From contig WGMR01000004.1 in the NCBI GenBank assembly GCA_016124955.1, positions 57,491 to 121,490 of the forward strand: a stretch of 64,000 bases of DNA. The letters run 5' to 3'. The notes under the pieces were generated by a model. That model was not told the origin of the DNA and did no database searches. It saw only the letters and a program-made list of their open reading frames with translations. The position numbers and the translations under genes were made by a program. Origin of the DNA: Alphaproteobacteria bacterium (GTDB taxonomy: Bacteria; Pseudomonadota; Alphaproteobacteria; UBA9219; RFNS01). Below, piece by piece: positions 19,823 to 62,302 of the stretch; positions within the stretch are counted from its first letter, which is position 1, and each line of letters opens with the position of its first letter.

Positions 19823-20536
19823 TCACGCCAGGGCTTCCTGCTGCTTGGCGCGCAAAATCGCGGTGCCTTCGCGCGCAAGCTTCATCAGCTGCTGGAACTG
19901 TTCTTCGGAAAACGGCTTCTGTTCGGCGGTGCCCTGCACCTCCACGATTCCGCCGCTGCCCGTAAGCACGAAGTTCGCATCCGCCTGCGCGTTGCTGTCT
20001 TCCGCGTAATCGAGATCGAGCACGGCGGCATTGTTGTAAAGGCCGCACGAAATCGCGGCGACGCTGTCGGTCAGCGGCGGTTTCTTCAGCCGACCGATGC
20101 GCACCAGATGCTTGCAAGCGAGCGCAAGCGCGACATAGCCGCCGGTAATCGCGGCGGTGCGCGTACCGCCGTCGGCCTGCAGCACATCGCAATCGATCTT
20201 GATCTGCATTTCGCCGAGCGCGGCGCGGTCGGTCACCGCGCGCAGCGCGCGCCCGATCAGCCGCTGGATTTCCTGCGTTCGTCCGCTTTGTTTGCCTTTT
20301 GCCGCTTCGCGCTCGGTGCGCTCCGATGTGGCGCGCGGCAGCATGCCGTATTCCGCCGTCACCCAGCCAAGACCGGTGCCGCGCAGCCAGGATGGCGTGC
20401 GCTCATCGATGCTGGCGGTACACAATACATGTGTATCGCCGCATTTGATCAGACACGATCCTTCGGCATATTTCGCGGCATTGATATCGAGCTGGATGGC
20501 GCGCAGCTCGCCTACGGTTCTTCCGGATGGACGCAT
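19823..20536 (-). CDS. rph: ribonuclease PH
   Basis: [19 protein letters not shown]...[11 protein letters not shown]...[13 protein letters not shown]...; AAGGAA RBS upstream. Confidence 0.9.
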
Positions 20537-20785
20537 TATGGTTTCCTTAAGTTTAATTAAGCGGACGATAACGGTTTGCTTGTGTAATGGCAAAAGCAAT
20601 GGCCGGAAATGAGTCGGTTCGATTTCGAAACAATATGCCTTAAATGAAAGGTAAAATTAACCAAGACTGTTTCGGAAGCGTATATTTTGCCATATTCATC
20701 AACTAGTTACCCAATTAATCCCTTGTTAAGAGATTTGCTGTCAAATTGATAATGTAGCGACATAAACCGGGCAGAGGTGGGGACC

Positions 20786-20968
20786 ATGCCAATTGTAAAT
20801 GTAGATGGAAACAGGTTGTCGGAAAGGGATCTGAGCGCCCTTGGCGCTGTTGAACAGGTTTCCTTCACTATGCGTCACCCTGACGGCCCTTTGCTTCGCT
20901 GGAAATATATGAACCAGGAAGAAACCTTGAAGAAATTGATCGACGAAGAATTTTGGGTGGAGGAATAA
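20786..20968 (+). CDS. small acidic hypothetical protein (60 aa) in an AT-rich island
   Basis: ATG with GAGGTG 9 nt upstream. Its stop overlaps the RBS of the next gene. Confidence 0.4.
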   Translation: MPIVNVDGNRLSERDLSALGAVEQVSFTMRHPDGPLLRWKYMNQEETLKKLIDEEFWVEE

Positions 20969-20971
20969 CAC

Positions 20972-21250
20972 ATGTCTTGGGCACCAACCGCTCGTATGGC
21001 AACCAAAGCCGGGCTTGTTCCTTGGAGACTTACTCAAACGGCATCGTCTGCTGTGGGTAGTGGCTTTGAATCGATAGGCTCTCTTCTGAAAGGCAAGCCC
21101 ATTACTGCCGTAAAGCAATTTGCAGGCGGCTTGGGCAAACTGTTCAGCGGTGTAGGCCGGGTGCTGCAGGGCACATCCCTTACACCAGGCAGAAATGCCA
21201 CGAATTCATTGCGTGACAGAAATCCAAAACTTCAGCCTGGAAGCGCATAG
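20972..21250 (+). CDS. small basic Gly/Lys-rich hypothetical protein (92 aa)
   Basis: ATG 3 nt after the previous stop, with GGAGGA RBS (translational coupling). FAGGLGKLFSGVG Gly-zipper-like segment. Confidence 0.4.
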   Translation: MSWAPTARMATKAGLVPWRLTQTASSAVGSGFESIGSLLKGKPITAVKQFAGGLGKLFSGVGRVLQGTSLTPGRNATNSLRDRNPKLQPGSA

Positions 21251-21276: not shown

Positions 21277-21310
21277 ACACGCGGGCCTCTCTCCCCCGCG
21301 TGTTTTTTTC
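21277..21310 (+). terminator. rho-independent terminator
   Basis: ACACGCGGG-cctctctcc-CCCGCGTGT followed by TTTTTTT. Confidence 0.6.
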
Positions 21311-21344
21311 AGAAACAGAAAATTTTTCTGCTAAGGAAATAAAA

Positions 21345-21515
21345 ATGGCTCTTCCGGCGATCGCAGCAAAAGCCGCCATGTTTGCGGTAAAGCACCCGAA
21401 AGTTACCGCGGCTGTGCTCAAATTCGCGGGCAAATCCATAGCAAAGCGAATGGGTGGCAGCGCCACAAAACCCGCTGCCAGATTCGGCGCCCGCGGCCCT
21501 AAATTTACATCGTAA
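21345..21515 (+). CDS. small Lys/Ala-rich amphipathic hypothetical protein (56 aa)
   Basis: Strong RBS (AAGGAAATAAAAATG). KHPKVTAAVLKFAGKSIAK resembles KGKPITAVKQFAGGLGK of the preceding 92-aa protein. Confidence 0.45.
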   Translation: MALPAIAAKAAMFAVKHPKVTAAVLKFAGKSIAKRMGGSATKPAARFGARGPKFTS

Positions 21516-36172: not shown

Positions 36173-37216
36173 TCAGGCTTTCCAGTTGCGCACCAGATCC
36201 ACAAGCTGCGCGACATGGTCCGGCGGCGTTGCGGGAAGGATACCGTGACCAAGATTAAAGATAAACGGGCCCCCTGCAAGGGCTTCCATAATGGAGGCAA
36301 CCTCGCGTACCAGCTTGCCCCCGCCCTCGAGCAATATTTCGGGCCGTAAATTGCCCTGTACCGGCCTGTCTTGCTGCAATTTGCGCGCGGCGGCCAGCGA
36401 TACGTCGCTATCTATGCCGATGGCGTCCGCGCCGCTGGCCGCGGCATAGCGGCCATAAAGCCCGCGCGCCCCGCGCGGGAAGCCGATTACGGGTATTTCC
36501 GGGTAATGCCGCTTGATCTCGGCGGTTATCTTTGCCGCCGGTCCGGTCACAAAACGGGTAAAAAGCGCCTCGTCGTGCGCCAGTAATCCGGCCCAGCTGT
36601 CGAATATCTGTAAAACCCCGGCGCCGGCGCTGATTTGCGCTATAAGATATTGCGCGCTTGCTTTGCAAAGCTGGTCTGAAAGCGCTGTCAGAAGATCCGG
36701 CTTTTCCTGCGCCCATTGCAGCGCACGGGCAAAGCCGCCGTTCTTGCCGCTTTTTCCGTCAATCATGTAGCAGGCTACCGTCCAGGGTGCGCCGCAAAAC
36801 CCTATCAGCGATGTTTTGTTGCCAAGTGCGGCGCGGACGGTTTTTATAGCCGCGCAGGTCGGCGCCGTTCCGGCTTCATCGTAAACAAGGTTCCACGCAC
36901 CGCTATCCTCGGGCAACGGGTCCAGACGCGGCCCTTCGCCTTCGGCAAAATCCAGTCTGCGGCCAAGGGCATGGGGAATAAGCAATATATCGGAAAATAT
37001 GATCGCGGCATCCAATCCGAAGCGCTTTACCGGCTGCAAGGTAACTTCGCTTGCCAGTTGCGGGTTTCCGCAAAGTTTCATGAAGCTCCCGGCCTGTTCC
37101 CGGACCGCACGATATTCGGGCAAATAACGTCCCGCCTGCCGCATCAGCCAGATCGGCGGCGGAGATGTGGCTTTGCCATTAAAAGTTTGTTCGAGCGTAC
37201 GCATTGAATTATCCAT
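36173..37216 (-). CDS. hemE: uroporphyrinogen decarboxylase
   Basis: ...PPIWLMRQAGRYLPEYR... HemE N-terminal signature. Confidence 0.9.
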   Translation of the reverse strand: MDNSMRTLEQTFNGKATSPPPIWLMRQAGRYLPEYRAVREQAGSFMKLCGNPQLASEVTLQPVKRFGLDAAIIFSDILLIPHALGRRLDFAEGEGPRLDPLPEDSGAWNLVYDEAGTAPTCAAIKTVRAALGNKTSLIGFCGAPWTVACYMIDGKSGKNGGFARALQWAQEKPDLLTALSDQLCKASAQYLIAQISAGAGVLQIFDSWAGLLAHDEALFTRFVTGPAAKITAEIKRHYPEIPVIGFPRGARGLYGRYAAASGADAIGIDSDVSLAAARKLQQDRPVQGNLRPEILLEGGGKLVREVASIMEALAGGPFIFNLGHGILPATPPDHVAQLVDLVRNWKA

Positions 37217-37606
37217 AGACGCGTTCTTCTATAATAAGAATATATAATAGATAGGAGTTGTAGGTTGGTCCTGTTGAAAATGGGTATGGAATGGCTTTTT
37301 AAGGGTTATGCGCTAAGTTATACGCAGGCTTTTTTTATAAGGCTTCAATATCCCTGTGGATCGAAACTGTGTAGCCATGTGTGCAAGTCCGCATATTGGC
37401 GCTAACCGAGGTTTGTGATTTTTGGGGGTAAACAAGGCCCTTGTTTTATCCCGGTTATACACAAGCGTGTTTGACATAACGGCTATCCTGTTGGGTAAAA
37501 GCGTGACAGTTTGTGCATGACAGGGATGATTTTCATGGGCCTGTGAAAAACCCGTTCTTGTCACCGTAATCCACAGGCACAGCGCAGGAAGGACAGAATA
37601 CCGGCA
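37205..37606. other. oriC: candidate chromosomal replication origin (Cori-type, between hemE and DUF299 gene)
   Basis: Roughly 390 bp non-coding, visibly AT-richer than its surroundings. DnaA-box-like 9-mers: TTATCCATA (37209-37217), GATCCACAG on the bottom strand (37354-37362), TTATACACA (37455-37463), TAATCCACA (37567-37575), and weak TTATCCCGG (37445-37453). AT tracts at 37224-37256. The location matches the conserved hemE|RP001(DUF299) origin site of Caulobacter and Rickettsia. Confidence 0.55.
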
Positions 37607-38452
37607 ATGGAAAGCAAGGAATTCCATATCCATCTTGTTTCCGACGCGACGGGTGAAACCATCAACACCATTGCCCGCGCCTGCCTCGTGCAATTTGAAG
37701 GCATTGAAGCGAGCCAATATTTCTGGAGCCTGATCCGCACTCCGCGTCAGCTCGATATGGCGATCGATGGTATCCGCGCCCGTCCGGGGCTTGTCATGTA
37801 CACCTTCGTTGACGAAGAATTGCGCCTGAAACTTGAGGATTTCTGCAAAAAGGAAAGCATACGCAGCATTTCGGTGCTCGATCCCGTGATGGATGCGATG
37901 CGCGACCATTTCGGCGTCAAGGCCGCGCACAATCCGGGCAAGCAGCATGTGCTGGATACCGATTACTTCGACCGGATCGAAGCGATGGATTTCGCGCTCG
38001 CGCTCGATGACGGCAACGGGTCGCGCAATCTCGAAAAGGCCGATGTCATTATCCTCGGGGTTTCGCGCACCTCGAAAACCCCGACCTGCGTTTATCTGGC
38101 CAATCGCGGCATCAAGGCCGCCAATATTCCGGTCGTCCCCGGCGTGGCGCTGCCCGAAAACCTTACGGAACTGTGCAAGGGCAGGCTGGTCGTCGGTCTC
38201 ACCAAGGATCCGGAAAGCCTGGTGGAGATCCGCCGCCACAGGCTTAAGTGGCTCAACCAGCATCAGGAAACCGATTACGTCGATCCGGACAAGGTAAAAG
38301 AAGAGGTACAGGAGGCGCGCCGCCTGTTCGCGCGTTTGGGGCTGCCGGTGATCGATGTTTCGCGCCGCTCCATTGAAGAAACCGCGGCCGAGGTTATGAT
38401 GCTATTGCAGAAACGCCGCATTGCGGCGGATAGCGGACGGGAAGGGCAATAA
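37607..38452 (+). CDS. DUF299 kinase/pyrophosphorylase (pyruvate,phosphate dikinase / PEP synthase regulatory protein-like)
   Basis: MESKEFHIHLVSDATGET...GVSRTSKTPT... hallmark of the PDRP/PSRP family. Confidence 0.85.
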   Translation: MESKEFHIHLVSDATGETINTIARACLVQFEGIEASQYFWSLIRTPRQLDMAIDGIRARPGLVMYTFVDEELRLKLEDFCKKESIRSISVLDPVMDAMRDHFGVKAAHNPGKQHVLDTDYFDRIEAMDFALALDDGNGSRNLEKADVIILGVSRTSKTPTCVYLANRGIKAANIPVVPGVALPENLTELCKGRLVVGLTKDPESLVEIRRHRLKWLNQHQETDYVDPDKVKEEVQEARRLFARLGLPVIDVSRRSIEETAAEVMMLLQKRRIAADSGREGQ

Positions 38453-39297
38453 TGGCGGTGACGGGCAAAACAAAGCTGGCGGGGGTGATGGGCTGGCCCA
38501 TCGCCCATACGCGCAGCCCCGCGCTGCATAATTTCTGGCTGGCGCATCACGGCATCGATGGCGTCTATGTTCCGCTTGCGGTGCAGCCCGAACGGCTGAT
38601 CCAGGCGTTGCGTTCACTGCCCGCGCTCGGCTTCCGCGGCGTCAACATCACCGTGCCGCACAAGGAGCTGGCGGCCAAGATCGTCGATGAGCTTGATATG
38701 TTCGGCGAGCGTATCGGCGCCATCAACACCGTGGTGGTGCGTGAAAACGGCACGCTGATGGGCATGAATACCGACACTTACGGCTTTGCCGAGCATTTGC
38801 GGGTTTCCGGCTACGATTTCAAGGCGGGCCCGGTCGCGCTTGTCGGGGCCGGCGGCGGCGCGCGCGCGATCGTGGCGGCCTTGATCGCGATGGAATGCCC
38901 GCGCGTGCTGGTGATCAACCGCACCTATGACCGCGCACAGGCGATTGCGGAATCGCTCCGCAACCAGCAAACCGATATCAAGGTTGTGAAATGGGAACAC
39001 AGGCACGAAGCGATCAGCGAGGCGCGGCTGCTCGTCAACGCAACCACGCAAGGCCTTTCGGGTACCGCGCCGCTCGATCTCAAGCTCGATAACCTCGCCG
39101 AAGGCGCGTGGGTGATGGATTGCGTCTATAACCCGCTGGTCACGCCTTTGTTGCAGGATGCCGCCGCGCGCGGCCACCGCACGATCGACGGGCTCGGCAT
39201 GCTGCTCTATCAGGCGGTGCCGGGCTTCGAAGCGTGGTTCGGCGTGGAACCGCAGGTGACGGACGAAGTGCGCCGCATCGCCGGCGCCGGGCTTTAG
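38452..39297 (+). CDS. aroE: shikimate dehydrogenase
   Basis: ...GVMGWPIAHTRSP...GVNITVPHK...GAGGGARAI...; 1-nt overlap with the preceding stop (TAATG). Confidence 0.9.
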   Translation: MAVTGKTKLAGVMGWPIAHTRSPALHNFWLAHHGIDGVYVPLAVQPERLIQALRSLPALGFRGVNITVPHKELAAKIVDELDMFGERIGAINTVVVRENGTLMGMNTDTYGFAEHLRVSGYDFKAGPVALVGAGGGARAIVAALIAMECPRVLVINRTYDRAQAIAESLRNQQTDIKVVKWEHRHEAISEARLLVNATTQGLSGTAPLDLKLDNLAEGAWVMDCVYNPLVTPLLQDAAARGHRTIDGLGMLLYQAVPGFEAWFGVEPQVTDEVRRIAGAGL

Positions 39298-45831: not shown

Positions 45832-45969
45832 AGAAAATCAGCGTATTAACCAACATTCGTGCGCCAAATTCTTGACAGAATGTGCGCCCATGGTCTTTAT
45901 GCGAATGATGATGCGCTTCGCTTGCGCCGGAATTTTTTATAAAGCCATTCGCTCAAAGGGGTTTCAATT

Positions 45970-46527
45970 ATGGCCGCAAACAGCATTGACAGTTTCTTTT
46001 CTGGCGCCGGCAAACTTATGTTTGGCAGGCAGAACTGGGCGAGGACGACACGCGGCATTATTGTGTCCGGCCTTGCCGTCGGCGCCGTGGCAATGCCGGT
46101 CGCCAAGGCTTATTTAACCGGTAAAATCATCGCAGGCCTTACAGCGCTTTCCATCGCGGCGCCCACAGCTGCGGCCCTGGCGCCCACAATTCTTCTGGGC
46201 GCGGCGCTTTGCGTAGGCGCTTACGCCGCATGGGGCGCGGTTTCCGGCGTCGCCAACGTGACGATGGCGGTGCTCGGCGATAACATGTTCGGCAGGGCGG
46301 CGAAGGCCGTCGTTGAACATCCGCGCACGACCGCCTTCCTTGTTGGCGCGGGCCTGACCGCATTCGGCCTTGCGGCCCTGCTTATGCCTGGCTTTGCGGC
46401 GCTTATACCGCCGGCCGTTACGGCCTTCGGGCTCAACGGCGCGATGACTACGGCCGTTGCGGGCGCGGGTATTATGGGATTGTCCGCGAACGCAATGCGC
46501 AATGCCGGCATGACCGGCCCGCACTGA
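45970..46527 (+). CDS. hypothetical Ala/Gly-rich integral membrane protein
   Basis: AAAGGGG RBS. A TTGACA-like -35 sits in the AT-rich 140 bp upstream region. Multiple TM segments; T-ending codons are more frequent than in the core genes. Confidence 0.5.
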   Translation: MAANSIDSFFSGAGKLMFGRQNWARTTRGIIVSGLAVGAVAMPVAKAYLTGKIIAGLTALSIAAPTAAALAPTILLGAALCVGAYAAWGAVSGVANVTMAVLGDNMFGRAAKAVVEHPRTTAFLVGAGLTAFGLAALLMPGFAALIPPAVTAFGLNGAMTTAVAGAGIMGLSANAMRNAGMTGPH

Positions 46528-46554
46528 TTTTCAATATAGACGGATTGAAGAGGC

Positions 46555-47277
46555 TCAGAGCCCCTTGGCGAGCAGCGAGATGGCCGCCGCCACGAGCAGT
46601 ATGTTGATGGCGGCGCGAAACCTGTCTTCCGATATCAGGCGCGGAACCTTGTAGCCGACCGCGAGCCCCAGCAAATGCGCGGGCAAACAAATGAGCAACA
46701 ACGTCAGAATTTCCCCATGATACATGCCGGCCGTGCCGCTGAGCGCGCAACGCAACGCATTGCCTGCGAACAAAATCAACAGAACGCTTGCCCGGAATGT
46801 TTCCTTGTTCAGCGAAAGGGTTTTCAAATAAGTCACGATAAAGGGCCCGCCCATGCCCGATATGCCCGAAACTACCCCGCCTGCCGCGCCCGCCGCCGCC
46901 TGCGCCGCCACGTTTTTCACGCCGCGCAATTGCGGAAACTTCAGCCGCGCGCCCGCCGCGACATAAAAAACCAAATAGCCGGCCAGCACGAAGTTAAGCA
47001 GGCTGTCATCGACCGTGTTGAGCAAAAACAAGCCGAGCGCGGAGGCGGCAGGGAAAACCACGGCGATCACGCCGATTCCCTTCCAATCGATATGACGCCA
47101 GATAAAAGGCAGGAGTACGCCTTTGAGCGCCTGAAACACAAGGAAAAGCGTCACGCTGTCCTTGATGCCGAACATGAGACTAAGCAACGGCACGGCGACA
47201 AGACCGCCGCCAAAACCGAACGTGGCCTCGACAAGCGAGGTGGCAAAAACGATAACGACACTCAGGAAAATTTCCAT
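46555..47277 (-). CDS. TauE/SafE-family sulfite/organosulfonate exporter
   Basis: Two-repeat 4+4 TM topology with the conserved Gly-rich GFGGG segment near the N-terminus (FGFGGGLVAVPLL), PF01925-like. Confidence 0.8.
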   Translation of the reverse strand: MEIFLSVVIVFATSLVEATFGFGGGLVAVPLLSLMFGIKDSVTLFLVFQALKGVLLPFIWRHIDWKGIGVIAVVFPAASALGLFLLNTVDDSLLNFVLAGYLVFYVAAGARLKFPQLRGVKNVAAQAAAGAAGGVVSGISGMGGPFIVTYLKTLSLNKETFRASVLLILFAGNALRCALSGTAGMYHGEILTLLLICLPAHLLGLAVGYKVPRLISEDRFRAAINILLVAAAISLLAKGL

Positions 47278-47331
47278 GCGCTTTTATGGCAGGAAAAGCG
47301 CCGGGTGGGAAATTTGTATGATAGTCCGGGT

Positions 47332-48048
47332 TTAGTGTGCCGGCGCGTAGTCGCCGCTGAAATCGACGTCGCTTTTCACGAGCCGGAGATGCGGAACACT
47401 TTTCTTCTGCGCCGCCCTGGTTTCCGCTTTTTGTTGTTCGACCAAGGCTTCGGCCTCGCTCACAAGATAATCCGCGACCATTGCCAGTTCCTGCGCGATG
47501 CTTACTTGGTCCTGCGGGTCGCTCAGCTCGATGTAATCGATATTAAATTCGCGCAACGTGTTGCAGCAATGCAGGCTGCTGACAAGCAGCGAAAGATCGT
47601 GGAACAGGGTGCCGATGCGCGTCGCCATCGCGCGCATGCGCGTCTTGGCCGGGCCGGTCGCGAGCCCGCAGCGCGTCAGCGCATGGATGAAATCGTTGCC
47701 GAAAATCATGGCATCCGGCGCGATGCCGTGCTGGCCGTCTTCGTTGTTGCGGCCGCGCGTGATCCACGCGCGCATCTGTTCACGCACGGCGGTGTTGCCA
47801 TCACCCGCGCCGCCAACCTCGCCGTCCGGGTCAAGTCTGGTGGGCAGCCATGCCAGTTCATCGAGCTGGTGACGGATCGCGCGCATGCCCATGCGCTCGG
47901 CCTGCATATAAGCGAAGGCGTATTCGTCGCGGCTGCAATCGGCCGAAAGGCTATGCGCGGCCAAAATGGCCTCGCGTTCGCCGGCGATGCGCTCCTTGGC
48001 GGCCATCAGAAGGCCGCGCACTTCATCGATATGTAATTCGGTGGCCAT
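47332..48048 (-). CDS. hypothetical protein (239 aa)
   Basis: ORF from MATELHIDEVRGLL...; several HxxxE/ExxH-type spacings. No confident family. Confidence 0.5.
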   Translation of the reverse strand: MATELHIDEVRGLLMAAKERIAGEREAILAAHSLSADCSRDEYAFAYMQAERMGMRAIRHQLDELAWLPTRLDPDGEVGGAGDGNTAVREQMRAWITRGRNNEDGQHGIAPDAMIFGNDFIHALTRCGLATGPAKTRMRAMATRIGTLFHDLSLLVSSLHCCNTLREFNIDYIELSDPQDQVSIAQELAMVADYLVSEAEALVEQQKAETRAAQKKSVPHLRLVKSDVDFSGDYAPAH

Positions 48049-48354
48049 GGGCCTGTTCCGATCCCTTGTTTCGCGGCACCGGGCCGCAAAGCCCGAAATA
48101 ACCGCACAAAGGTTAATTTTAACCAAAATATATCCATAAATTGTTAAGCCACAGCTTTAACAATCAATCATTAAACATATGATATATAACAATAATTTTT
48201 GTGTCATTGGCCTTATGGGTGCCTTTGCGGCTAAGACGCTGATATCCCTGCCTGTCTCAAAATTTTTTTTAATTGTGCAACAAAAGTTCGTTAAATATCG
48301 CCATCAGCGCACATTCTTTGCGCGCGCGGGCGTTTCGCCCTATACCTTCCGGCC

Positions 48355-50214
48355 ATGCAGGATTTTGATGTCATCATTGTTGGCGGTGGCCATGCGGGCT
48401 GTGAGGCCGCCGCCGCGGCCGCGCGGCTTGGCGCGCATACGCTGCTTGCTACGCATAAGCCTGAAACCATAGGCGAAATGTCGTGTAACCCGGCAATCGG
48501 CGGGCTCGGGAAGGGCCATTTGGTTCGGGAAATTGATGCGCTGGATGGCGTCATGGGCCGGGTGGCTGACCGCGCGGGGATCCAGTTTCGGCTTTTGAAC
48601 CGTAGCAAGGGCGCTGCCGTGCAAGGCCCGCGCGCGCAGGCGGACCGAAAACTTTATCGCCGCTATATGCAGGAAGTGCTCGGCAGTCAGCAAAACCTTT
48701 CCATTCGCGCCTGCGCCGTGGGCGATCTGATCGTTGGCGCCGATAACCGTATCGAAGGTATCGTGACCGAGCAGGGCGAAGTGCTGCGTGCCGCAGCCGT
48801 TGTGATTACGACGGGCACGTTCCTGCGTGGCCTTGTTCATATCGGTGCCGAAAAGATACAGGCTGGCCGTATAGGTGAAGCGCCATCCACGAAGCTTTCG
48901 GCCACGCTTGCACGGCTCCGGCTCGCGCTTGGCCGGCTCAAAACCGGTACACCCCCGAGGCTCGATGGCCGGACGATCGATTGGGCCGGGCTTGAAATGC
49001 AGCCGGGCGACGAACCGCCTATACCCTTCTCGACCCTAACATCCGCGATCACAAATCCCCAGGTTTGCTGCGGCCTGACCTACACATCTGCCGACACGCA
49101 CAACATGATCCGCGCCAACCTCGACCGCTCGCCGATTTATTCGGGACAGATCGAAGGGACGGGCCCGCGTTATTGCCCTTCGATCGAAGACAAGGTTGTG
49201 CGTTTTGCAGACAAGGAACGGCATCAGATTTTCCTCGAGCCCGAAGGGCTAGACGATCACACCGTATATCCAAACGGCATCTCAACATCGCTGCCGCGTG
49301 ATGTGCAGGATGCACTCGTGCGATCCATACAAGGTCTTGAAAATGTTAGTATTTTGCGCCACGGCTATGCGGTTGAATATGACTATGTCGATCCCCGGGA
49401 ACTGACCGCATCGCTCGAAGTCAAGCGCGCGCCCGGGCTTTTTCTGGCGGGACAAATCAACGGCACCACGGGCTATGAGGAAGCGGCGGCACAGGGGCTG
49501 ATTGCCGGGCTGAATGCTGCGCTCAAGGCAAGCGGCAGCTCGCCCTTCACCCTTTCCCGCACGCAAGCCTATATCGGCGTGATGATCGACGATCTGATTT
49601 CCCGTGGCACCGCCGAGCCTTACCGCATGTTCACAAGCCGCGCCGAATACAGGCTTAAGTTACGGGCAGACAATGCCGACCAGCGCCTTACCCCGGCGGG
49701 CCTGGAGCTCGGATGCGTGGGGCCAGAAAGACGGCAGAAATTCACGAGCAAGATGAGCGAGCTGGCCCGCGCGCGGACGATGGCTGAAGGATTTTCTGCC
49801 AGCCCAACCGCGCTTGTGAAACAGGGCGTGCACATCAACCAGGATGGGGTGCGGCGTAGCGCCATGGATTTGCTGGCCTATCCCGATGTTTCACGTGAAA
49901 CATTGACCAGAATTTGGCCACAACTATCTGATATTAAAACAGAAATTTTGAATCAAATCGAGACAGATGGCCGCTATGCCGGCTATATGGACAGACAGGA
50001 TGCCGATATTCGGGCCTTCGAGAAGGATGAAGCTTTGCGACTGCCGGCCGACCTGGATCTCGATGCCATCGGCGGGCTTTCGGCTGAGGTACGGCAAAAA
50101 CTGGCGCAGGTACGTCCGCAGACGCTTGGTGCGGCCGCGCGCATTCCGGGGGTTACGCCAGCGGCCACCCTGGCACTCTTGCGCTATGTTAAACGCAGTA
50201 AAAAAGCAGCATAA
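48355..50214 (+). CDS. mnmG: tRNA uridine 5-carboxymethylaminomethyl modification enzyme MnmG (GidA)
   Basis: [22 protein letters not shown] fold, full-length GidA. Confidence 0.95.
49887..49902. promoter_or_regulatory. parS: parS centromere site (TGTTTCACGTGAAACA)
   Basis: Perfect 16-bp palindrome identical to the ParB-binding consensus; lies inside the mnmG 3' region (encodes DVSRETL). Confidence 0.75.
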
Positions 50215-50235: not shown

Positions 50236-50970
50236 ATGACCGATGTTTCACGTGAAACATTCCTGACCCATTTTCCCGATGTTTCACGTGAAACATTGGA
50301 CAAGCTCGATCGCTATGCCGCGATGCTTACCGAATGGCAAAAGAAGATGAACTTGGTTGGTCCGGGCACGTTGTCCGAGATATGGACCCGCCATTTTCTG
50401 GATAGCGCGCAATTGATGCCATACCTGCCGCAATGGACCAGAAGCGTGACCGATATTGGCAGCGGTGCAGGTTTTCCCGGCATGGTGCTGGCAATTTTGG
50501 GTGCGCCACACGTAAACCTTATTGAAGCAACCCAGAAAAAGGCCCGTTTCCTTGAGGCGGTGGCAACAGAGCTTGGGCTTGAGGTGCATATTCATGCCGA
50601 GCGGTCCGAGCTTGTGCGCAACATACGGTCAAGCGTTGTGACGGCGCGTGCCGTGGCGCATATGGATGAGCTGATTCCCTATGCTTTCCCGTTTCTGGAT
50701 AAGGGCGGGATCATGATTTTCCTTAAGGGTCAGCATGTTGAAGAAGAATTGACAGCGGCAGCCAAAGATTGGCACTTTGAAGCCAGCAGGCATGCTAGCC
50801 TTAGCGATCCTTCCGGATTCGTATTGGTGTTGCAGGGCGTCGGCCATAATCAAAGCACCCGCAAGGATGTCCGTTGGCGCGGGCTGGGGCATGTGACCAA
50901 GGCGGGCGTTTCGACGCAAAAAGTTGTGACCCCGCCGCCGAAGCCGGAGCCCGACCCGGAGCCGAAATAG
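50236..50970 (+). CDS. rsmG: 16S rRNA (guanine527-N7)-methyltransferase RsmG (GidB)
   Basis: VSRETLDKLDRYAAMLTEWQKKMNLV...DIGSGAGFPG SAM-methyltransferase motif. Unusual Pro/Glu-rich C-terminal tail (VVTPPPKPEPDPEPK). Confidence 0.9.
   Translation: MTDVSRETFLTHFPDVSRETLDKLDRYAAMLTEWQKKMNLVGPGTLSEIWTRHFLDSAQLMPYLPQWTRSVTDIGSGAGFPGMVLAILGAPHVNLIEATQKKARFLEAVATELGLEVHIHAERSELVRNIRSSVVTARAVAHMDELIPYAFPFLDKGGIMIFLKGQHVEEELTAAAKDWHFEASRHASLSDPSGFVLVLQGVGHNQSTRKDVRWRGLGHVTKAGVSTQKVVTPPPKPEPDPEPK
50244..50259. promoter_or_regulatory. parS: parS centromere site (TGTTTCACGTGAAACA)
   Basis: Perfect consensus palindrome in the first codons of rsmG. Confidence 0.75.
50280..50295. promoter_or_regulatory. 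parS: parS centromere site (TGTTTCACGTGAAACA)
   Basis: Third perfect copy, 36 bp after the second, also within the rsmG 5' coding region. Confidence 0.75.
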
Positions 50971-51070: not shown

Positions 51071-51925
51071 ATGAGCTCAGATCAAACCAAGTCCGGCGGC
51101 GTCGCGCCCGGCATCACGCCGCCCGAACGGTGCCGCATCATCGCGATCGTTAATCAGAAAGGCGGGGTCGGCAAAACCACCACCACCGTCAATCTCGCGA
51201 CCGCGCTTGCCGCCGTCGGCATGCGGGTGCTGGTGGTCGATCTCGATCCGCAGGGCAACGCATCCACCGGTTTCGGCGTGCCGCGCAGCGCGCGCGAGCG
51301 TGGCGGCTATGAGATGATTTTCGACGGCATGAGCGTGGAAGACGTTGCGGCGGCGACGCCCATTCCGGGTTTGCAGATCGTGACATCCTCGGCCGACCTT
51401 GCGGGCGCCGAGATCCAGCTCGTGAACGCCGAGCGGCGCGAGAGCCGCTTGCGCGAAGCGCTCGAGCGCAGCGAAAAGGATTTCGATTACATCCTGATCG
51501 ATTGCCCGCCCTCGCTGAACCTTTTGACGCTCAATGCGCTCGTGGCGGCGCATAGCCTGATCGTGCCGCTGCAGGTGGAGTTCTATGCGCTGGAGGGCAT
51601 CAGCAACCTTGTGCAAACCGTGGAAGCGGTGCGCACGCGCTTTAACCCGGGGCTTGTGATCGAAGGCGTGGTGCTGACCATGTTCGACCGCCGCAACGCG
51701 CTTTCGGAAGCGGTTGCGAAAGACGTGCGCGATTATTTCGGTGACCGCGTTTTCACCACGGTGATCCCGCGCAATGTTCGCATTTCCGAAGCGCCTTCGC
51801 ACGGCAAGCCGGTTCTGCTTTACGATCTGAAATGCCCGGGTTCGCGCGCCTATATGCATCTCGCGAGCGAGGTTTTGAAGCGCGAAGGCAGGCCGCTGGG
51901 CGCGAGCGAAAGCGCCGTGGCGTAA
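51071..51925 (+). CDS. parA: chromosome partitioning ATPase ParA
   Basis: Deviant Walker A (NQKGGVGKTTT). Confidence 0.9.
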   Translation: MSSDQTKSGGVAPGITPPERCRIIAIVNQKGGVGKTTTTVNLATALAAVGMRVLVVDLDPQGNASTGFGVPRSARERGGYEMIFDGMSVEDVAAATPIPGLQIVTSSADLAGAEIQLVNAERRESRLREALERSEKDFDYILIDCPPSLNLLTLNALVAAHSLIVPLQVEFYALEGISNLVQTVEAVRTRFNPGLVIEGVVLTMFDRRNALSEAVAKDVRDYFGDRVFTTVIPRNVRISEAPSHGKPVLLYDLKCPGSRAYMHLASEVLKREGRPLGASESAVA

Positions 51926-51944
51926 TACTGAGGGAGAAAAAACC

Positions 51945-52928
51945 ATGACCAACAAAACCAACGCAGCGCTGAAAGATACGGGCAAGCCGGCCCCGCTGGG
52001 CCGCGGGCTCGCGGCGCTGTTCGGCGATGCCGACGCATCCTATCAGCAAGCGCCGGGCGCGCCTGCTACCGCTTCGGGCGCCGCCGCGCAAAGCCCCGCG
52101 CCGCAAACCGCGCCGCAAACCGCGCAGCAAAAAAGCCCGCAAACCATGCCGCTAAGCTGGCTGCAGCCCGGCCGCTTCCAGCCGCGCCGCCAGTTCGACG
52201 AAACCGCTTTGCGCGAACTTGCGGCTTCGGTGCGCGCGCGCGGCGTGCTGCAACCGCTGCTGGTGCGGCCGCTTGCCGAAAAAAATTCATACGAGATTGT
52301 GGCGGGCGAGCGCCGCTGGCGCGCCGCGCAGATCGCGGGCGTGCATGACGTGCCGGTGGTCGTGCGCGCGCTTTCGGACAAGGAAACGCTTGAGGTCGCG
52401 CTGGTCGAAAACATCCAGCGGCAGGACCTTAGCGCGGTCGAGGAAGCGGAAGGTTACCAGCGCCTGATGGATGAATTTTCCTATACGCAGGAAGACCTGG
52501 CCAAGACCGTGGGCAAGAGCCGCAGCCATGTGACCAACATGCTGCGCCTGCTTGGGTTGCCGCAAACGGTAAAAGATATGCTGGCCAGCGGCGCGCTCAG
52601 CCCCGGCCATGCGCGCGCGCTGATCGCGACCGACGACCCCGAAGCGCTGGCGAAGGCTATTGCGGAAAACAGCCTTTCGGTGCGCGATGCCGAAGCGCTT
52701 GCCAAGCGGCATGGCGACGGCAAGGCGCGGCAGGGCAAGAAAGCCGGCAAGGCGCAAAAGCGCGGCGAGATCCGCACCGCGGACGTGATCGCGCTCGAGC
52801 GCGATCTGGCCGCCACGCTCGGGCTCAAGGTTGCGCTCAAGGCCCGCACCGACGGCAGCGGGACGCTGACGGTGGCGTACAAGGATCTCGAGCAGCTCGA
52901 CGGGTTGATCGGGAAGTTGCGGGGGTAA
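51945..52928 (+). CDS. parB: chromosome partitioning protein ParB
   Basis: ParB box (GERRWRAAQIAG), HTH and C-terminal dimerisation region. Three parS sites lie about 2 kb upstream. Confidence 0.9.
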   Translation: MTNKTNAALKDTGKPAPLGRGLAALFGDADASYQQAPGAPATASGAAAQSPAPQTAPQTAQQKSPQTMPLSWLQPGRFQPRRQFDETALRELAASVRARGVLQPLLVRPLAEKNSYEIVAGERRWRAAQIAGVHDVPVVVRALSDKETLEVALVENIQRQDLSAVEEAEGYQRLMDEFSYTQEDLAKTVGKSRSHVTNMLRLLGLPQTVKDMLASGALSPGHARALIATDDPEALAKAIAENSLSVRDAEALAKRHGDGKARQGKKAGKAQKRGEIRTADVIALERDLAATLGLKVALKARTDGSGTLTVAYKDLEQLDGLIGKLRG

Positions 52929-59421: not shown

Positions 59422-59973
59422 TTACTTATCTTTTTGCGCCATGCGCATCTGGCGCGCGCGGGTAAGGATTGTTTCTTCGAGCTGCGCGCCGACCGAAGCC
59501 GCGACATCGGTATCGGCCCAGTTCCCGCTTTCGCCCTGAACCTGCTTGAAGGTTTTGACCCGCACGCCATCGGCCCGCAATTCGCGCGACAGGATGAAAA
59601 CGTTAAGCTTCAGGCGTTCTTCCGGGTGTTCGGGCGCGGAATACCAATCGGTCAGGATCACGCCGCCGAACGGGTCGGCCGAGGCGATCGGCATGAAAGA
59701 GACGGTATCGAGCGTGGCCCGCCATAAATAAGCATTGACCGTAAGGCCTGTGCTTTCATCTTTTGCATCCTCGCCGAGCAGCGTAAAACCGCCTTCATCG
59801 GAAACAAGGCTGCCATAACGGTATTGCTGGTCGCGCACCTTATCCGGAAATTCGCTTTCGCTGCCGGAAAGGCCACAGGCCGTTAACATCGCGGTAACAA
59901 CTGCCGCAAGGCCCAGAAAACGAAAGTATTGAAAGTAACGATGCGCGTTTATTGCCTGAGTTGATTTGTTCAT
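59422..59973 (-). CDS. lipoprotein of a conserved alphaproteobacterial family (possibly DUF3576)
   Basis: Signal peptide with lipobox LTAC. No catalytic motif recognised. Confidence 0.6.
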   Translation of the reverse strand: MNKSTQAINAHRYFQYFRFLGLAAVVTAMLTACGLSGSESEFPDKVRDQQYRYGSLVSDEGGFTLLGEDAKDESTGLTVNAYLWRATLDTVSFMPIASADPFGGVILTDWYSAPEHPEERLKLNVFILSRELRADGVRVKTFKQVQGESGNWADTDVAASVGAQLEETILTRARQMRMAQKDK

Positions 59974-60307
59974 GGCCTAACCTGTGGATAACTTTGACGA
60001 CTCGAGCATTTTGATATGGTTATAAACCAGAAAATCGGGGGGCAGGCAAGCTGGCCATGGGCGCTCCGCGGCTTGTTGCGATGATGCCACAGGTCCCCCG
60101 CTTGTCTTGAAAAACCCGTTTTACTGCTTGTCTGTGCAAGGCTTGGCAGGCAAATTCCCCAACGACGGGGCGTGTTGCCCTTAGTAAGTCCCAGTGATCA
60201 GTCCTCAATCATCAGCGCTACTCGCAATCAAGTAAGAGTTCGTTGATATAAGGGCAAGCCCCACTGGTTTGTTTGTTCACTCTTACCCACTCATGAAGGG
60301 GGAAAAC

Positions 60308-61714: not shown

Positions 61715-62302
61715 ATGGCCTATGAATATTCTGCAGAAAACCATAATTGGGATCTGACCTTGAGGGCATCATGGAACCTTCTTATGTCAGGTCAGGCGGC
61801 TAGCAAGGGGCCAAACCTTGAAAAAAAGAACGAACAAGTATTTTCATTTTTTACCGGATCAATGTTGCTTGCTTTTTGTGCAATCGAAAACTTCACAAGC
61901 TCGGTTGCATTTTCGATGCCTGACCATGACAGGTTTAGAGCCTTTGATTATGAAGGCTACAAAAGAATAATCAGATTTTGGGATAAAATAGAGAAGGTGT
62001 GCGCTGCGTTAAATCAGCCGGTAGATAAATCGCAAGGTCTTTTTCAAATAATCAAAGAAATGCAAATTTGGAGAAATGCACTATCCCATACTTCGTCCTA
62101 TGAAATCGAAAGTACGGAGATTCAGGATACTGTTAAAGATTCTTCCATGCTACACGTACCCTTTCACAACAAGGAATACGCGCGGTCTGTCAACGTAGGT
62201 AATGCCAAGAAGTTTTATTGTGCAGCATATAATTATATTGATATGGTCAAGAATGCGTCCGGGATTGAACCCAGGGCAAGCTGCACATATAAGCCAATTT
62301 AG
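61715..62302 (+). CDS. hypothetical protein in a strongly AT-rich island; RNxxxH (HEPN-like) motif
   Basis: AAGGA RBS. Codon usage and GC differ sharply from the flanking genes. WRNALSH fits the Rx4-6H HEPN signature. Family assignment is tentative. Confidence 0.5.
   Translation: MAYEYSAENHNWDLTLRASWNLLMSGQAASKGPNLEKKNEQVFSFFTGSMLLAFCAIENFTSSVAFSMPDHDRFRAFDYEGYKRIIRFWDKIEKVCAALNQPVDKSQGLFQIIKEMQIWRNALSHTSSYEIESTEIQDTVKDSSMLHVPFHNKEYARSVNVGNAKKFYCAAYNYIDMVKNASGIEPRASCTYKPI

Follow-up and report, generated by a model that had tools for sequence, protein, structure and literature searches.

Probable hemE-linked chromosomal replication origin in an uncultured alphaproteobacterium

In the 64-kb stretch of alphaproteobacterial DNA analysed here (the window), the gene for uroporphyrinogen decarboxylase, hemE, and a gene of the DUF299/Kinase-PPPase family (COG1806, yqfL/ppsR-like) lie divergently, on the - and + strand respectively, across a non-coding gap of 402 bp, and it is this gap that we consider as the candidate chromosomal replication origin (oriC). 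The gap has 44% GC compared with 61.0% for the window, so the AT-richness remarked on in an earlier note on this DNA is real, while the background of ~64% GC given there was too high. The length of 402 bp follows from a hemE start at 37204, and the genes called independently on an 8.5-kb Logan contig of identical sequence include the same 343-aa protein, with agreeing boundaries; the 390 bp previously given apply if the in-frame ATG at 37216, upstream of this start, is used instead. For the DUF299 protein an identical NCBI entry exists, MBI1272997.1, which comes from a metagenome-assembled genome (MAG) labelled 'Alphaproteobacteria bacterium'.

After the DUF299 gene the + strand continues with aroE, coaE and dnaQ, and the right side further holds mnmE, an inserted-looking block, mnmG, rsmG, parA, parB, holA and leuS. 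Beyond hemE the - strand carries hemH, an aldo/keto reductase (AKR) gene, hemJ, two genes of unknown function and rho, and further left of rho are found secB, a Tim44-like gene, mltA, smr and hslVU. The overall order is rho...hemJ-AKR-hemH-hemE / DUF299-aroE-coaE-dnaQ...mnmE...mnmG-rsmG-parA-parB-holA...leuS. The stop codon of the DUF299 gene overlaps the aroE start at 38452.

A crude gene map of the window leaves longer gaps than this one, hence it is not strictly the longest non-coding stretch, as had been claimed. Among the gaps of at least 250 bp in this map it ties for the lowest GC, and the other gap of 44% contains a 195-aa open reading frame (ORF). Rfam detected no RNA family, neither in the whole window at the gathering threshold nor in 37100-37700 at E up to 1, ARAGORN detected no tRNA, and a promoter and terminator scan of the gap gave nothing exceeding the shuffle expectation.

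To score DnaA boxes we counted mismatches to TTATCCACA, the E. coli consensus, and estimated the chance level by shuffling the gap itself 2000 times with its dinucleotide content preserved. Three sites with at most one mismatch are present where 0.16 are expected (P = 0.0005), and nine with at most two where 1.58 are expected, a number reached by none of the shuffles; cores of the form T-N-CACA were found seven times, with 1.0 expected. No other 400-bp stretch of the window is as dense: elsewhere at most four sites within two mismatches were counted, against nine here. Of four 9-mers earlier reported to be within one mismatch, TTATCCATA, TTATACACA and TAATCCACA hold, while the fourth, GATCCACAG, is out of register and in register becomes CGATCCACA, with two mismatches. 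Two box-like sites form the direct repeat GTTATACGCAGGC / GTTATACACAAGC, 137 bp apart, and the box-like sites at 37355 and 37567 make up the inverted repeat CCTGTGGAT / ATCCACAGG. All sites are listed in Table 1.

Table 1. Coordinates of the candidate origin, its boundary genes, its sequence elements and the nearby segregation locus
Feature	Position	Strand	Basis or remark
Candidate oriC (whole hemE/DUF299 intergenic region)	37205-37606		Context, composition, box count, skew, conservation
hemE, uroporphyrinogen decarboxylase; left boundary, transcription away from gap	36173-37204	-	Pfam URO-D, E 2.4e-104, full-length domain
DUF299/Kinase-PPPase gene; right boundary	37607-38452	+	Pfam PF03618, E 1.8e-92, full-length domain
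DnaA-box-like TTATCCATA	37209-37217	+	Motif scan; 1 mismatch; 5 bp upstream of hemE start codon
AT-rich tract adjoining hemE, candidate DNA-unwinding element	37222-37262		20-mers of at most 25% GC
Conserved C-free element AATAGATAGGAGTTGTAGGTTGG, between AT tract and next box	37246-37268	+	Alignment columns ~46-69
DnaA-box-like TTTTCAACA	37272-37280	-	Motif scan; 2 mismatches
DnaA-box-like TTATACGCA	37318-37326	+	2 mismatches; within direct repeat GTTATACRCARGC; aligns with TTTTT(C/T)ACA of relatives
DnaA-box-like CGATCCACA	37355-37363	-	2 mismatches to TTATCCACA, 1 to TGATCCACA (presumably the Caulobacter G-box form); inverted partner of 37567 box
DnaA-box-like TTACCCCCA	37423-37431	-	Motif scan; 2 mismatches
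Tandem pair TTATCCCGG and TTATACACA (the latter at 37455-37463)	37446-37463	+	Motif scan, alignment; 3 mismatches and 1 mismatch
DnaA-box-like TCATGCACA	37512-37520	-	Motif scan; 2 mismatches
DnaA-box-like TTTTTCACA	37542-37550	-	Motif scan; 2 mismatches; fits TTWTNCACA
DnaA-box-like TAATCCACA	37567-37575	+	Motif scan; 1 mismatch; 32 bp upstream of DUF299 start
Three perfect parS sites TGTTTCACGTGAAACA	49887-49902, 50244-50259, 50280-50295		0.01 expected by chance
parA (51071-51925) and parB (51945-52928), origin-segregation genes	51071-52928	+	Pfam

Further we compared the gap with those of 23 relatives, comprising 14 Azospirillales genomes, four closer metagenome contigs and five further contigs, with DUF299 proteins 60-71% identical to that of the window. 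In every one of them hemE and the DUF299 gene are divergent across a gap of ~315-540 bp. The 14 Azospirillales loci, which were found by the DUF299 protein, all have hemE divergently upstream, a gap of ~370-540 bp and 1-5 DnaA boxes, and the Niveispirillum/Azospirillum-like loci carry a conserved cluster of four boxes. The four closer metagenome contigs (69-71% identity) show the order hemH-hemE / DUF299-aroE-coaE-dnaQ-DLH, as does the window. The best genome matches were Rhodospirillaceae/Azospirillales (Niveispirillum, Rhodocista and Azospirillum-like MAGs); genome-contig and metagenome-contig scans gave nothing above 66% protein identity, and a protein search yielded, beyond the identical entry, one match of 75% on a 1.25-kb contig and others of at most 71%.

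A count of 7-mers over the 23 homologous gaps, with the window excluded and no motif preset, returned as the most widely shared words almost exclusively fragments of DnaA boxes, namely TTATCCC, TATCCCC, TTCCACA, TGTCCAC, ATCCACA, TCCACAG and TTATCCA. Each of these is present in 14-19 of the gaps, whereas the neighbouring DUF299 coding regions contain it in 0-1 cases. When the window and the five relatives nearest to it (L032-L035 and L001) were aligned with MAFFT, a common layout emerged: a hemE-proximal AT tract, a C-free element, a reverse-oriented box and then further box positions. The reverse box reads G(G/T)GGATAAA in the relatives, and its counterpart in the window is taken to be the degenerate TGTTGAAAA, with the MAFFT placement a few bases rightward; read on the - strand, this site is TTTTCAACA, close to the reverse-oriented TTATCC(C/A)C box of the relatives. 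We read the further box positions as corresponding to TTATACGCA, to the pair of TTATCCCGG and TTATACACA and to TAATCCACA of the window. Here TTATCCCGG aligns with a TTATCCCCG box conserved among relatives, and TAATCCACA stands roughly at their TTATC(C/T)CC box at the DUF299 end of the gap, with an offset of ~8 columns in MAFFT. Several of the box-like sites in the window thus coincide with conserved box positions or lie a few bases off. A small gap ORF called in L034 from a conserved TTTATGG was rejected; in our reading it is not conserved, as L035 stops after five codons.

The AT tract next to hemE is ~40 bp long with 13-25% GC, and is found at the matching hemE-proximal position in the five aligned relatives. 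Its 20-mers of at most 25% GC start at 37222-37243, the lowest 30-mer (13% GC) starts at 37224, and the top strand is without C at 37230-37269, in line with the earlier mention of AT tracts fit for an unwinding element. The C-free element reads A(A/G)ATGGTGGTNAGTAGTTGG in the relatives, with GTTGG invariant in all six sequences, and is conserved better than the DnaA boxes; it could be a candidate DnaA-trio-like single-stranded DNA site or a promoter element. As we read four of the relatives, the element is followed by a sigma-70-like TTGGNN-N15/16-TAAAAT which overlaps the first reverse box, and this overlap suggests an origin-embedded promoter.

Two arrangements could guide DnaA onto single-stranded DNA. 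To the right of the AT tract come the C-free element and then a reverse-oriented box, a polarity which we assume to be that of the arrangement of the DNA-unwinding element (DUE) and box R1 in E. coli oriC. To its left lies TTATCCATA-GACGC-GTTCTTCTA, that is, a box and a spacer followed by the trios GTT CTT CTA at 37223-37231. According to the rule published for the basal unwinding system (BUS) of Bacillus subtilis and many phyla, a box with at most two mismatches is followed, after no more than 16 bp of spacer, by three or more NAN trios on the complementary strand (PMC8287927). The succession of box, spacer, trios and AT-rich DNA at 37209-37250 formally fits this rule, at a level expected by chance.

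The cumulative G-C curve of the window has its minimum at 37149, 56 bp from the gap, where the skew changes from -0.018 on the left side to +0.007 on the right (P = 0.003 by permutation of 1-kb blocks). The - strand carries 72% of the coding bases on the left, and the coding strand changes exactly at the gap. As divergent transcription could mimic the signal, we split the skew by gene strand. For + strand genes it changes from -0.013 on the left to +0.020 on the right, for - strand genes from -0.030 to -0.020, and the skews at third codon positions shift in the same direction. We regard the skew signal as supportive, not decisive.

The three parS sites are found 12.3-12.7 kb from the gap, just upstream of parAB, in accordance with the parAB-parS block that had been placed ~12 kb away. 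All three are inside coding sequence, at the 3' end of mnmG and the 5' end of rsmG, and one pair is spaced by only 36 bp.

No TTAA-N7-TTAA site for CtrA is present in the gap even when one mismatch is allowed, as the earlier note had already stated for the motif itself, and the sole match to TTWW-N7-TTWW arises from two DnaA-box-like sequences. Perfect CtrA sites were found in none of the gaps of the 23 relatives, and one-mismatch matches (two) in L001 only, which agrees with the suggestion that CtrA control may be absent. The integration host factor (IHF) consensus (WATCAANNNNTTR / WATCAN5WTR) has no match on either strand of the gap, and the gap contains no GANTC (the CcrM site) and one GATC.

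Elsewhere in the window four TTAA-N7-TTAA-like sites are found within 200 bp at 20536-20729, one of them perfect (TTAATCCCTTGTTAA, 20715-20729). They are situated in a gap of 48% GC that separates the RNase PH gene from three small ORFs on the + strand (20777-20968, 20972-21250 and 21300-21515), for which no Pfam match was obtained. From its motifs this region could be a CtrA-regulated promoter, and if so the motif exists in the genome though it is absent from the origin.

Several origins known from Alphaproteobacteria have the same location. The origin of Caulobacter crescentus was mapped close to hemE, overlapping the DUF299 ORF (CCNA_00001), and thus at the junction to which the earlier note had pointed; in this origin, Cori, two DnaA boxes are moderate and five weak, and it also has an AT-rich region, sites for CtrA (five), IHF (one) and CcrM (GANTC, five) and embedded promoters, of which a hemE promoter is required for replication (PMC6393856). 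The window shares with Cori the location between hemE and DUF299, the AT-rich region and the non-consensus boxes, whereas the CtrA, IHF and GANTC sites are all missing from its gap. We believe that the AT-rich region of Caulobacter is also on the hemE side. Presumably, rho-mnmE-gidAB-parAB are all on the hemE side in Caulobacter, whereas mnmE...parAB are on the DUF299/dnaQ side in the window.

For Rickettsia and other Rickettsiales origins have been predicted at hemE, in Rickettsia at the hemE/DUF299 junction, as also stated in the earlier note (PMC1914354). The predicted origins of Rickettsia and Wolbachia, defined by the criteria of Brassinga 2001/2002 and Ioannidis 2007, resemble the gap in their link to hemE, their length of ~400 bp, an AT content above that of the genome and the presence of DnaA boxes, of which they have 2-5 (PMC1914354); they differ by usually having IHF and one or more CtrA sites, and in Wolbachia the partner is a CBS-domain gene and not DUF299. 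In Hyphomonas the origin was located close to hemE by marker-frequency analysis (PMC6650430).

The closest similarity is to Azospirillum. In Azospirillum sp. B510 the GC-skew shift coincides with the cluster rho-hyp-hemH-hemE-hyp-maf-aroE-coaE-dnaQ, and parAB follow dnaQ further downstream; Magnetospirillum AMB-1 carries the rho...dnaQ cluster too (PMC2818188). A study of 22 Azospirillum genomes assigned oriC, with six DnaA boxes, to the region that separates hemE from yqfL, at a distance of 12.4 kb from parAB and in agreement with the DoriC entry ORI97017823 (bioRxiv 10.64898/2026.09.14.751567). The window and the Azospirillum origin (A. baldaniorum Sp245 and sp. B510) have in common the boundary genes, the cluster rho...hemH-hemE / DUF299...aroE-coaE-dnaQ, parAB ~12 kb off and downstream of dnaQ, and several boxes of mixed orientation, and neither of the two reports (PMC2818188; bioRxiv 10.64898/2026.09.14.751567) mentions CtrA sites. 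On the other hand, the boxes of the window are all imperfect and arranged unlike the four-box cluster of the Azospirillales, a group with only ~60-63% protein identity to the window. Further differences are that hemJ and the aldo/keto reductase gene stand between rho and hemH, that an extra block separates mnmE and mnmG, and that maf, which in B510 lies between DUF299 and aroE (PMC2818188), is absent at 37607-39297 and likewise in the four closest metagenome relatives. Because gene order and parAB distance match those published for Azospirillum, the window reproduces the Rhodospirillales/Azospirillales hemE origin almost gene for gene, with minor differences.

Taking location, boxes, skew in the window and conservation together, we consider it highly probable that 37205-37606 is the chromosomal oriC of an uncultured alphaproteobacterium with Rhodospirillales/Azospirillales-like gene order, which upholds the central suggestion of the earlier note. 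That DnaA binds here, where the strands would open and that the origin fires in vivo are predictions from the sequence. As the CtrA, IHF and GANTC features fail, the gap should be filed as a hemE-linked alphaproteobacterial oriC and not as a CtrA-controlled origin of the Cori type.

At such an origin, ATP-bound DnaA would fill some 9-10 weak-to-moderate boxes of both orientations at 37209-37575, none of them a perfect TTATCCACA, and would oligomerise and open the AT-rich, strand-asymmetric tract at 37222-37262 beside hemE. The helicase would be loaded at the opened tract and forks would depart both ways, the left one co-directional with hemE...rho and the right one with DUF299...dnaQ, mnmE and mnmG-parB. 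As both divergent promoters must lie inside the same 402 bp, transcription of hemE and DUF299 may modulate the opening, an effect reported for Caulobacter. The newly copied origin region would then be segregated by ParB at the three parS sites ~12.5 kb rightward. Since no recognisable CtrA, IHF or GANTC sites are present, control is probably exerted through DnaA alone and not by a Caulobacter-style CtrA switch. We speculate further, and consider it rather doubtful, that this lineage and its nearest relatives fire from an origin with low-affinity boxes only, without CtrA, IHF and CcrM inputs, where opening would need the C-free element of 20-23 nt, either as a lineage-specific, trio-like site at which DnaA binds single strands or as an origin-embedded promoter whose transcription is needed for unwinding.

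A number of observations weigh against an origin in the gap. No dnaA gene is found within the window, the gap has no perfect TTATCCACA box, and CtrA and IHF sites, which belong to the published criteria for alphaproteobacterial origins, are absent from it. The only perfect TTATCCACA of the window lies outside the gap, at 59983-59991 on the - strand, where it precedes the start codon of a DUF3576 lipoprotein-like gene (ORF 59422-59973, -) by 10 bp and could mark a DnaA-regulated gene or be a chance site. There are 40-mers elsewhere in the window that are more AT-rich than the AT tract. The skew has a small amplitude, comes from 64 kb of a 129.7-kb MAG contig and is partly confounded with gene orientation. 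Finally, the BUS rule gave one formal match in the window, at 37209-37231, which has three trios only and is not significant, being at chance level; the homologous gaps are inconsistent in this respect, and the better conserved C-free element lies across the AT tract. Because the rule is permissive and the matches of the relatives are inconsistent, DnaA may be directed onto single strands from either side.

Alternatively, the gap could be only a divergent promoter or regulatory region, where DnaA acts as a transcription factor or the boxes are conserved promoter elements, with oriC elsewhere, for instance by dnaA. Both genes do need promoters in the gap, the sigma-70-like sequence of the four relatives overlaps their first reverse box, and the imperfection of every box in the window would suit this explanation as well. 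However, nine box-like sites in 402 bp far exceed the need of a DnaA-regulated promoter, the skew minimum and strand switch of the window coincide with the gap, and parS and parAB are at the distance reported for Azospirillum origins. Moreover, alphaproteobacterial origins have been mapped at or near hemE and not at dnaA (PMC6393856, PMC6650430), and we find the promoter explanation improbable. A spacer that is AT-rich by chance, without function beyond promoters, would raise the background of TTAT-type matches, yet shuffles that preserve dinucleotides still give P of at most 0.0005, and the box motifs recur in the 23 relatives, at several positions in the five nearest, with proteins that are 60-71% identical. 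At such divergence intergenic DNA under no selection would be randomised, and the shuffles, the alignment and the 7-mer count together effectively refute this possibility, to which we attach next to no probability.

It is also conceivable that the gap is a datA-like or DARS-like site that titrates or reactivates DnaA, with the origin nearby, for example in the AT-rich DNA at 48.1-48.35 kb upstream of mnmG. The most AT-rich 40-mers of the window (15-17% GC) are indeed found there, at 48156-48300, and we take the position next to mnmG to be the E. coli-like gidA position of oriC. Against this, 48.1-48.35 kb has four two-mismatch matches to the DnaA box and none with one mismatch or fewer, adjoins the likely insertion between mnmE and mnmG away from the skew minimum, and it is the hemE gap, not the mnmG gap, that is conserved with boxes across relatives. 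A titration site with the origin close by thus seems very improbable to us, more so than the promoter explanation though less so than a chance spacer. All three alternatives account less well than oriC for synteny, box enrichment, skew minimum and conservation taken together. Three stretches were tried as alternative origins and rejected: 48.1-48.35 kb for having two-mismatch matches only, 20.6-21.5 kb with one weak match, and the low-GC stretch at 61.6-62.45 kb, which is the 195-aa ORF mentioned above.

With the hemE/DUF299 gap as oriC, the chromosome of this uncultured alphaproteobacterium gains a likely zero point, which aids MAG orientation and scaffolding and helps in estimating growth rates from read depth (peak-to-trough ratio) and in reading strand biases. 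The position is already known for Alphaproteobacteria, no new kind of system is involved, and pipelines of the Ori-Finder/DoriC type would call it routinely; what is mildly novel is confined to the conserved C-free element of a weak-box origin without CtrA and IHF sites. It is nevertheless one more case, from a lineage without close sequenced relatives, in which the hemE/DUF299 position is kept across Alphaproteobacteria while the CtrA and IHF sites known from Caulobacter are not.

Two further observations concern the genes to the right. At 45832-48354 three genes part mnmE from mnmG, namely an unknown 185-aa ORF, a TauE/SafE exporter (46555-47277) and an unknown 264-aa ORF. This block looks inserted into the usual mnmE-mnmG-rsmG-parAB run and ends in the AT-rich DNA at 48156-48300. 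The 195-aa ORF at 61715-62302 on the + strand has a low GC content, with ~0.42 at third codon positions compared with ~0.75 in neighbouring genes, and was probably horizontally acquired; it contains an R-x4-H motif (RNALSH) reminiscent of HEPN nucleases.

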